From Escherichia phage V18: DNA of 64,000 nt. Of the stretch, positions 43,196-43,248 are shown piece by piece (the first letter of the stretch is position 1; the number at the start of each line of letters is the position of its first letter). The DNA lies in sequence record NC_041937.1; one strand, 5' to 3'. Both the position numbers and the translations under genes were made by a program. Below the pieces are notes generated by a model. It made no database searches, was not told the origin of the DNA, and saw only the letters and a list, made by a program, of their open reading frames with translations.

Positions 43196-43248
43196 TTGAC
43201 TAATAGTATCAGATAATCTATAATAATGGCTCACTTTGTTAGTGAGCC
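43196..43248 (+). promoter_or_regulatory. sigma70 consensus promoter with dyad at transcription start
   Basis: TTGACT-N17-TATAAT (43196-43224) followed by inverted repeat GGCTCAC-N7-GTGAGCC (43228-43248). Confidence 0.55.

Follow-up and report, generated by a model that had tools for sequence, protein, structure and literature searches.

What is the role of a perfect inverted repeat which lies directly behind a promoter of Escherichia phage V18 and covers the place where the transcript is expected to begin? A repeat in this position could be recognized as DNA by a repressor, or it could be transcribed and fold into a stem-loop of the leader RNA. The original prediction named both possibilities and proposed that this promoter may be regulated separately from the others. 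The locus was analysed within a stretch of 64,000 nucleotides (the window). Many rV5-like E. coli phages (genus Vequintavirus) match the region at 99% identity, and by this sequence comparison the window is assigned to an rV5-like Vequintavirus.

The arrangement is present in the sequence as it was first described: the hexamers TTGACT-N17-TATAAT are followed by AAT (3 nt), GGCTCAC (43228-43234), TTTGTTA and GTGAGCC (43242-43248), and by its position the dyad does lie at or over the predicted 5' end of the transcript. It could be extended by one pair at each end, which gives a perfect 9-bp stem with a 5-nt loop (43227-43249). The features of the locus are collected in Table 1.

Table 1. Features of the thyX-nrdA region and compensatory changes in the predicted stem (positions of the window).
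Feature	Position	Strand	Remarks
Terminator-like hairpin CCTATCACAGCGATAGG with T-rich tail TAACTTTTGT	43168..43194	+	Terminator-like in a scan; directly past the thyX stop (43166)
-35 element TTGACT	43196-43201	+	Upstream TG (43194-43195) gives the phage-typical TGTTGAC motif (43194..43201)
-10 element TATAAT	43219-43224	+	17 nt past the -35 element
Predicted leader stem-loop	43227..43249	+	RNA energy -14.4 kcal/mol; covariation; sense-strand preference
5' arm TGGCTCACT	43227-43235	+	Part of the stem-loop
Loop TTGTT	43236-43240	+	Part of the stem-loop
3' arm AGTGAGCCA	43241-43249	+	Part of the stem-loop
Shine-Dalgarno sequence GGAG of the gp103 homologue	43255..43258	+	5 nt past the hairpin, 6 nt before the ATG
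CDS, rV5 gp103 homologue	43265..43726	+	153 aa; phrog_5557; first gene of the unit
CDS, rV5 gp104 homologue	43737..43967	+	76 aa; phrog_5488; homologues carry DUF8047
nrdA, ribonucleotide reductase large subunit	43964..46279	+	Last gene before the next terminator
Rho-independent terminator GGGGCTTCGGCCCC with ATTTT	46287..46305	+	Matches rV5 t109 (Table S4)
Pair	43233/43243		A-T to G-C in the 85%, 76% and 71% clades; read directly from the sequences
Pair	43234/43242		C-G to T-A in the 76% and 71% clades, T·G in the 85% clade; read directly from the sequences
Pair	43235/43241		T-A to C-G in the 85%, 76% and 71% clades; read directly from the sequences
Pair	43228/43248		G-C to A-T in the 71% clade; read directly from the sequences
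Pair	43227/43249		T-A to A-T in the 71% clade; read directly from the sequences

The two hexamers constitute a predicted host sigma-70 promoter in front of gp103, gp104 and nrdA, and as a prediction this promoter was already known. Record NC_011041 carries the annotation "Sigma70-type promoter; P106" at exactly this site, and Table S4 of the rV5 paper lists the same promoter as P107 (Kropinski et al. 2013, Virol J 10:76; PMC3606486), which is the name used here. The sequence given in that table, AACTTTTGTG-TTGACTAATAGTATCAGATAATCTATAAT-AATGGCT, agrees with the window and is placed between thyX and gp103 (PMC3606486). The prediction was made purely in silico, by consensus search and MEME only, with the start site unmapped; the annotation ends 7 nt past the -10 element, the dyad is unmentioned and the terminator list of the same paper contains no hairpin at the dyad site (PMC3606486). 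The dyad is therefore undescribed in the rV5 paper. A literature search for start-site or RNA-seq data on Vequintavirus returned no mapped transcript 5' end and nothing else usable.

P107 matches the hexamer consensus at 11 of 12 positions with a 17-bp spacer, and it is the top match in a scan of the 38-48 kb interval. Promoter-like matches as a class are at chance level in this interval (20, compared with 21.2 in shuffled sequences), so the case for the promoter is made by position and conservation and not by score alone. The site is intergenic (thyX stop at 43166, gp103 start at 43265), and near-consensus hexamers, a 16-18 bp spacer and an intergenic position on the same strand as the genes, conserved in relatives, are all found here. 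The relatives have TTGAC(A/T) as the -35 element in nearly all of 34 distinct leaders, with a few cases of TTGAT(C/T) or TTTACT, and TAAAAT, TATCTT, TATTCT, TAGAAT or similar as the -10 element at a spacing of 16-18 nt. The extended -35 motif was claimed to be common to other promoters, and the count bears this out: TGTTGACW occurs 26 times against 7.1 expected. A motif similar to TGTTGAC has been described for Certrevirus promoters (PMC7344957).

The genes behind the promoter are gp103, gp104 and nrdA, which are followed by a t109-like terminator; P107 therefore heads a gp103-gp104-nrdA unit, and the terminator at 46287-46305 is the probable end of this unit. The first gene belongs by its PHROGs match (phrog_5557) to a family of unknown function. 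A Pfam search with gp103 found no family, a PDB profile search found no sequence match, and a Foldseek comparison of its AlphaFold2 model (low confidence, pLDDT 56) with the PDB gave nothing at E below 0.3. No recognisable DNA-binding domain was found in gp103 or gp104. The element at 43168-43194, upstream of the promoter, is a weak terminator-like structure which is separate from the dyad and belongs to its context. At the equivalent place, relatives within the rV5 clade have a hairpin and T-rich tail whose sequence differs. The element at 43168-43194 is not among the terminators listed for rV5 (PMC3606486).

The start of gp103 differs among GenBank records, being placed at 43226, 43253 or 43265. 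A 4-nt loop insertion in Vequintavirus relatives shifts the frame of the ORF that begins at ATG 43226, and ATG 43253 is lost in some relatives; the true start is therefore ATG 43265, which places the dyad in a non-coding leader. On this comparison 43226-43264 is read as non-coding. The relatives retain a GGAG sequence ahead of the ATG.

Chance does not account for the hairpin. With every combination of stem and loop length counted separately, there are 11 perfect stems of 9 bp or more in the window and 1.5 in shuffled sequences, and those of the window fall at 7 distinct places; the most stable of the other places coincide with rho-independent terminators of the rV5 list. Among 13 scanned promoter-like sites (-10 match of at least 5/6), P107 has the most stable structure directly past the -10 element. 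The dyad was said to be lacking at the other promoters, and indeed its exact sequence occurs once in 64 kb. A second combination of promoter and hairpin, at 58976, was set aside as not comparable, since it spans a coding junction. An Rfam scan of the window yielded three tRNAs only at the gathering score.

Orthologous leaders were gathered from annotated phages, IMG/VR, metagenomes and assemblies encoding an 85%-identical gp103. The phages examined comprise Vequintavirus, Seunavirus, Mydovirus, Henunavirus, Certrevirus, unclassified Vequintavirinae and Aeromonas Plateaulakevirus, and they share the order of thyX, promoter, hairpin, Shine-Dalgarno sequence, gp103 and gp104, with nrdA or an nrd cluster coming next. 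A hairpin lies between the -10 element and the Shine-Dalgarno sequence in all 34 of the 34 distinct leaders, which belong to several genera. Its sequence differs strongly from clade to clade. The arms are GGCTCAC/GTGAGCC in rV5-like phages, GGCTCGTC/GGCGAGCC in relatives at 85% identity, GCTCGTC/GACGAGC with an outer GGT/ACC at 76%, and GAAGT-CGTCT/AGACG-GCTTC at 71%. Other genera have GGGG...CCCC stem cores with differing flanking pairs, and the Aeromonas phages form a 15-bp AT-rich stem. The loops include TTGTT, GTAGTAA, CCTAAAAA, GTT and ATTT. Within the genus Vequintavirus the 7-bp core stem is invariant in all 10 aligned members, the loop shows one G-to-A change and one 4-nt insertion, the closing pair is T-A or T·G and the nucleotides flanking the stem are variable. 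Across Vequintavirinae and more distant phages the structure has thus been retained at this position while its sequence has fully turned over.

Compensatory changes could be read by hand at five pairs of the stem (Table 1). Covariance models were used for the alignments as a whole, because MAFFT alignments of bare hairpins were out of structural register. In the rV5-clade model, with 22 re-aligned leader sequences (10 of them distinct), 89.9% of the cells are standard pairs against 83.4% in shuffles, a value reached by 0 of 500; four pairs have changes on both sides in this model-fitted alignment. The covariation score is 0.385. Shuffles give 0.293, with 4 of 500 reaching the observed score, and sliding the partners by 1-3 columns gives no more than 0.09. 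A second model was built from 12 distinct Seuna-, Mydo- and Henuna-like leaders. Here the share of paired cells is 88.9% (76.5% in shuffles) and both-side changes are found in 12 cells (5.0 in shuffles), and none of 500 shuffles reaches either value. Its score of 0.333 compares with 0.131 for the shuffles and no more than 0.10 for slid controls of 1-3 columns. Since both alignments were fitted to the structure, the paired fractions are somewhat inflated; the slid controls and the changes read by hand are unaffected by this fitting. The rV5-clade covariance model (R1) did not reach the other genera. When the complete leaders were compared with dinucleotide shuffles, the minimum-free-energy z-scores reached only moderate values (-0.1 to -6.1).

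The strand on which the pairing acts is indicated by wobble pairs. G·U pairs make up 23 of the 284 predicted pairs in the stems, and the plus-strand RNA is more stable than the minus-strand RNA in 27 of 31 variants, by up to 5-10 kcal/mol where wobble pairs occur. Taken over the aligned leaders, these results show selection for base pairing which works on the sense strand, with a loop sequence free of constraint. Covarying arms, G·U pairs in the sense-strand RNA and a loop that tolerates change favour an RNA stem-loop over an operator. The dyad is most likely a stem-loop of the sense-strand RNA leader and neither an operator nor a terminator. Of the two possibilities named at the outset, the 5' stem-loop is therefore the one that stood, and the operator, with arms that are not conserved and no further copies, did not. 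The proposal of separate regulation fell with it: the arm sequence is unconserved, a second copy or an enrichment of half-sites is not found, and there is no sign of a cognate regulator.

Which transcripts could carry the complete stem is a matter of where they begin. E. coli RNA polymerase usually starts 7 nt (range about 6-10) past the -10 element and prefers a purine. A canonical start would here fall at 43231-43233 (T43231 or A43233), inside the 5' arm. According to computed folding, an RNA beginning at G43228 would form the full stem (-14.5 kcal/mol), an RNA from T43231 a 5-bp stem (-4.3 kcal/mol) and an RNA from A43233 no hairpin (0 kcal/mol). In rV5-like phages the stem begins 2-3 nt past the -10 element, and the exact start therefore decides how much of the stem the RNAs of P107 would contain; a canonical start at 7-9 nt would leave most or all of the 5' arm untranscribed from P107 in the rV5 clade. 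The outermost pairs (43227/43249 and 43228/43248) nevertheless covary in this clade, a hint that RNAs which begin further upstream, such as thyX read-through, also matter; both points count against the reading preferred below. The original prediction overlooked this effect of a canonical start on the 5' arm, as well as the rV5 annotation and the presence of the hairpin throughout the subfamily.

The hairpin is closest to the -10 element in the rV5 clade and one distant contig, where 0-4 nt separate the two. The gap is 6-9 nt for Certrevirus, ABPH49 and W70 and 11-15 nt for the group of Seuna, Mydo, Henuna and TH18, and the Aeromonas phages have the longest one, about 19-20 nt. In one variant of the 85% clade an AAT insertion shifts the stem 3 nt further off. 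This range of 0-20 nt among lineages, together with the insertion variant, means that the spacing is not tightly constrained. With a canonical start the 5' end of the transcript would cut into the stem in the rV5 clade, coincide with its beginning in Certrevirus and ABPH49, and precede it by 4-8 nt in the Seuna/Mydo group.

The reading preferred here is a predicted sigma-70 promoter for gp103-gp104-nrdA combined with a constitutive leader RNA hairpin that protects or insulates the message, and not a protein-binding DNA site; its probability is put at roughly 55%. By analogy with known leaders, such a role is the most likely one. The hairpin could shield the 5' end of the message from 5'-end-dependent decay (RppH/RNase E) in the manner of ompA, and could insulate the ribosome-binding site from upstream sequence. 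The mRNA for nucleotide metabolism would thereby be longer-lived, and the hairpin would act constitutively and not as a switch. E. coli 5' stem-loops are known to hinder 5'-end-dependent decay (Emory et al. 1992, reviewed in PMC7509114).

Two observations tie the hairpin to the downstream message and not to the 3' end of thyX. First, a replacement or interruption of the upstream gene does not separate it from gp103: in PVP-SE1 an HNH insertion lies upstream and in phiTE a different thymidylate synthase gene, and in both the promoter and hairpin are still found with gp103. Secondly, the rV5 clade keeps the dyad although a terminator-like hairpin is already present ahead of the promoter.

The ompA leader (hp1; Emory, Bouvet and Belasco 1992) resembles the phage leaders in having a simple stem-loop near the 5' end and upstream of the Shine-Dalgarno sequence. 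A stable stem-loop of the 5' UTR, kept by selection for pairing, is found here as well, and the conservation of structure with a free sequence fits ompA-type elements, which need pairing only. In the work of Emory, Bouvet and Belasco, stabilising stem-loops reportedly must lie within a few nucleotides of the 5' end. The phage leaders differ in this respect: depending on the lineage, the predicted start lies inside the stem or the stem is offset by up to about +13. The ompA-type mechanism needs a stem that begins right at the 5' end, which is expected in some lineages only (those with 6-9 nt), and this was counted against the analogy. The likeness is one of resemblance and does not extend to membership in the class, as the 5'-terminal position and the effect on half-life are here predicted only.

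Alternatively, the hairpin could act on RNA that reads through from thyX, as a barrier to 3' exonucleases or a processing boundary which would stabilise the upstream mRNA, or as a weak attenuator which would lower read-through into the nrd unit; in rV5-like phages the transcripts of P107 would begin within it and escape. In its logic such a role is similar to the terminator/promoter cassettes of T4 (PeSLs). This is unlikely, though it has several points on its side. The outermost pairs (43227/43249 and 43228/43248), only 3-4 nt from the -10 element, still covary in the rV5 clade despite a canonical start inside the 5' arm. The GGGG...CCCC stems resemble PeSL stem-loops, which are effective terminators (PMC2839356), and Certrevirus-like leaders, alone among the relatives, have a moderately T-rich tail past the stem (ATTTTGTGT, ATTTTTTTAG). 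These points are opposed by the lack of a U-tract in most lineages, the window included (GAAATGGAG), and by the order of the elements, as the promoter always comes first and the hairpin second, opposite to the arrangement in PeSLs. The clade of rV5 has its own terminator-like hairpin at 43168-43194 and still retains the dyad by compensatory change, and the hairpin remains with gp103 where the upstream gene is replaced.

PeSL cassettes of T4-like phages (Arbiol et al. 2010; Comeau et al. 2014) likewise combine a near-consensus sigma-70 promoter with a GC-rich stem-loop in a compact intergenic region, and the GGGG...CCCC stem of the non-rV5 genera adds to the likeness. In PeSLs the order is stem-loop, AT-rich region and promoter, and the stem-loop terminates upstream transcription (PMC2839356). 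They are repeated many times and mediate shuffling, whereas the dyad is single-copy in 64 kb and belongs to one orthologous leader; moreover, its stem-loop is past the promoter and mostly without a U-tract. The PeSL order is shown by the other hairpin, at 43168-43194, which precedes the promoter.

A related possibility is that in rV5-like phages P107 fires inside the hairpin, so that the full stem-loop would be formed only on thyX read-through RNA and the RNAs of P107 would carry a truncated one or none. This is quite unlikely, although the persistent covariation of the outermost pairs speaks for it. If true, one leader would give two classes of nrd-operon mRNA differing in stability or processing, and the fate of the mRNA would depend on promoter choice; the logic would be akin to that of T4 gene e, but with a hairpin that leaves out the Shine-Dalgarno sequence.

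The stem-loop could also be an RNA operator, where a phage or host RNA-binding protein, possibly gp103 itself, binds it and controls gp103 translation. The translational operators of T4 gene 43 and gene 32 are the model for such control. The geometry in the rV5 clade, with the hairpin ending 2-5 nt before the Shine-Dalgarno sequence, is that of known translational operators, and the conserved gp103 is always linked to the hairpin. This arrangement is not general, as the distance to the Shine-Dalgarno sequence is 9-17 nt in most other genera. Loop and stem sequences are unconserved even in close relatives, with the 4-nt loop insertion occurring within the genus, and gp103 has no RNA-binding signature in Pfam, in PDB sequences or in the fold of the low-confidence model. 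Binding of this kind is improbable.

In T4 genes e, soc, 49 and I-TevI the promoter is situated inside an inhibitory RNA structure which sequesters the Shine-Dalgarno sequence or AUG (PMC3014915). With a canonical start inside the 5' arm, read-through and P107 RNAs would differ in structure formation as they do in T4 gene e. Structure on the read-through RNA could accordingly hide the Shine-Dalgarno sequence and AUG of gp103, and P107 RNA without the 5' strand would be translated. The promoter does lie on the 5' strand of the structure, as in the T4 genes, and in the window the computed probability that the Shine-Dalgarno-AUG segment is unpaired falls from 0.57 in promoter-initiated RNA to 0.35 in read-through RNA. 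The hairpin, however, stops 5 nt before the Shine-Dalgarno sequence and, as a difference from T4 gene e, leaves this sequence and the AUG free. The corresponding values in relatives are 0.55 and 0.53 (L071), 0.34 and 0.31 (L015) and 0.49 and 0.58 (L016), with an inconsistent sign elsewhere, so the predicted differences are not conserved. Sequestration as a conserved mechanism was rejected on account of this inconsistency among lineages, and the reading as such is very improbable.

A DNA operator over the start site, at which a dimeric repressor would shut P107 separately from other promoters, is barely credible. An operator requires conserved half-sites and, as a rule, is present in further copies. 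The perfect inverted repeat has the classic operator position and is unique to this promoter in the window, but its arms change with complementarity kept, including G·T pairs which are meaningless in duplex DNA, and they differ between the clades at 99%, 85%, 76% and 71% identity. The equivalent hairpin lies 6-20 nt past the -10 element in other genera, off the core of the polymerase footprint, and in 64 kb there is neither a second copy nor an enrichment of half-sites (5 found, 6.6 expected). The host repressor of nrd operons recognizes the NrdR box, a 16-bp palindrome with the consensus acaCwAtATaTwGtgt which is usually present in tandem. With up to 3 mismatches no NrdR box was found near the promoter, and the sole match in the window, at 23689, is at chance level.

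Two further candidates were rejected. An intrinsic terminator or attenuator requires a U-tract directly past a GC-rich stem; the plus-strand tail GAAATGGAG has none, and most relatives lack a T-tract. The scan flagged the hairpin as a terminator on the minus strand only, where the T-rich tail is just the reverse of the -10 element and is lacking in relatives, and no minus-strand genes converge at this place.

The hairpin is real and under selection, but as an RNA element attached to a previously predicted promoter it is of an ordinary kind and represents no new type of mechanism. In annotation the dyad should not be taken as an operator. As an example of a leader stem-loop preserved over long phage evolution, the hairpin is clean and supported by covariation, and promoter, hairpin, gp103 and gp104 form a conserved module which heads the phage nrd genes.

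The start of the gp103 homologue, which follows the leader stem-loop (the hairpin) of the predicted sigma-70 promoter, is annotated in GenBank at three different ATG codons within 43226-43267, namely 43226 (FV3, 166 aa), 43253 (Murica and SYGMH1) and 43265 (rV5). The loop of the leader hairpin carries a 4-nt insertion in phiWec193 and in one further collected relative (L042), and the ATG at 43253 is missing in ECP26, B9-1 and Aya. These differences between relatives show that, among the three putative starts, conservation is limited to 43265.

The promoter and leader vary among the relatives. 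Among those with an 85% identical gp103, one contig has an additional AAT between the -10 element and the hairpin (TATAATAATAATGG), and in another the -35 element is TTTACT, replacing TTGACT (L072, 555-603; L073, 520-560). In an alignment of Seuna- and Mydo-like leaders (L003, L004, L005, L013 and L050), the blocks flanking the hairpin, ATGAAT on the 5' side and GGCAGAATGGAGA on the 3' side, are conserved, unlike the inner stem pairs, which are variable.

In PVP-SE1, an HNH endonuclease gene is inserted between thyX and the promoter (L005, 976-1374). In phiTE, the upstream thymidylate synthase gene is different and shorter (L009, 704-1384), and an HNH gene interrupts nrdA (L009, 3218-3432). 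The module consisting of promoter, hairpin, gp103 and gp104 is unaltered in both phages. Homologues of gp104 have DUF8047 (PF26220) as a precomputed Pfam match; when the protein encoded in the window (43737-43967) was scanned locally against Pfam, no family was returned, even with E values of up to 1 allowed.

A terminator-like hairpin separates thyX from the promoter (Table). It has no entry in the terminator list of the rV5 paper (Kropinski et al. 2013, PMC3606486). At this position, relatives of the rV5 clade possess a hairpin of other sequence with a T-rich tail, and genera outside this clade have no counterpart there. In a search of the phage collection, 19 records titled 'Campylobacter phage' (host Campylobacter jejuni) shared 98-99% identity with rV5-like phages of E. 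coli over this region, a pattern suggestive of mislabelling or contamination.

Coordinates of additional features in the window
Feature	Position	Description
Terminator-like hairpin	43168-43194	CCTATCACAGCGATAGG with tail TAACTTTTGT; immediately 3' of the thyX stop, just 5' of the promoter
Promoter-like element with hairpin	58976-59035	TTGACT-N16-TACAAT, 4 nt later 8-bp hairpin GTGATTAA...TTAGTCAC
TGTTGACW, example sites	27467, 28887, 33361, 39982, 50460, 51852, 58592, 60501	
Three clustered tRNA genes	24623-24942	- strand; Rfam

The only Rfam matches within the window were the three tRNA genes. The second promoter-plus-hairpin candidate straddles the 3' end of one ORF and the 5' start of the next and thus probably belongs to the coding sequence instead of forming another leader hairpin.

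TGTTGACW is strongly over-represented in the window (26 sites vs. 7.1 expected). This motif is the mark of a predicted class of promoters, spread across the phage, in which TG precedes the -35 element. A TG-extended -35 promoter motif has likewise been described for Certrevirus (PMC7344957).
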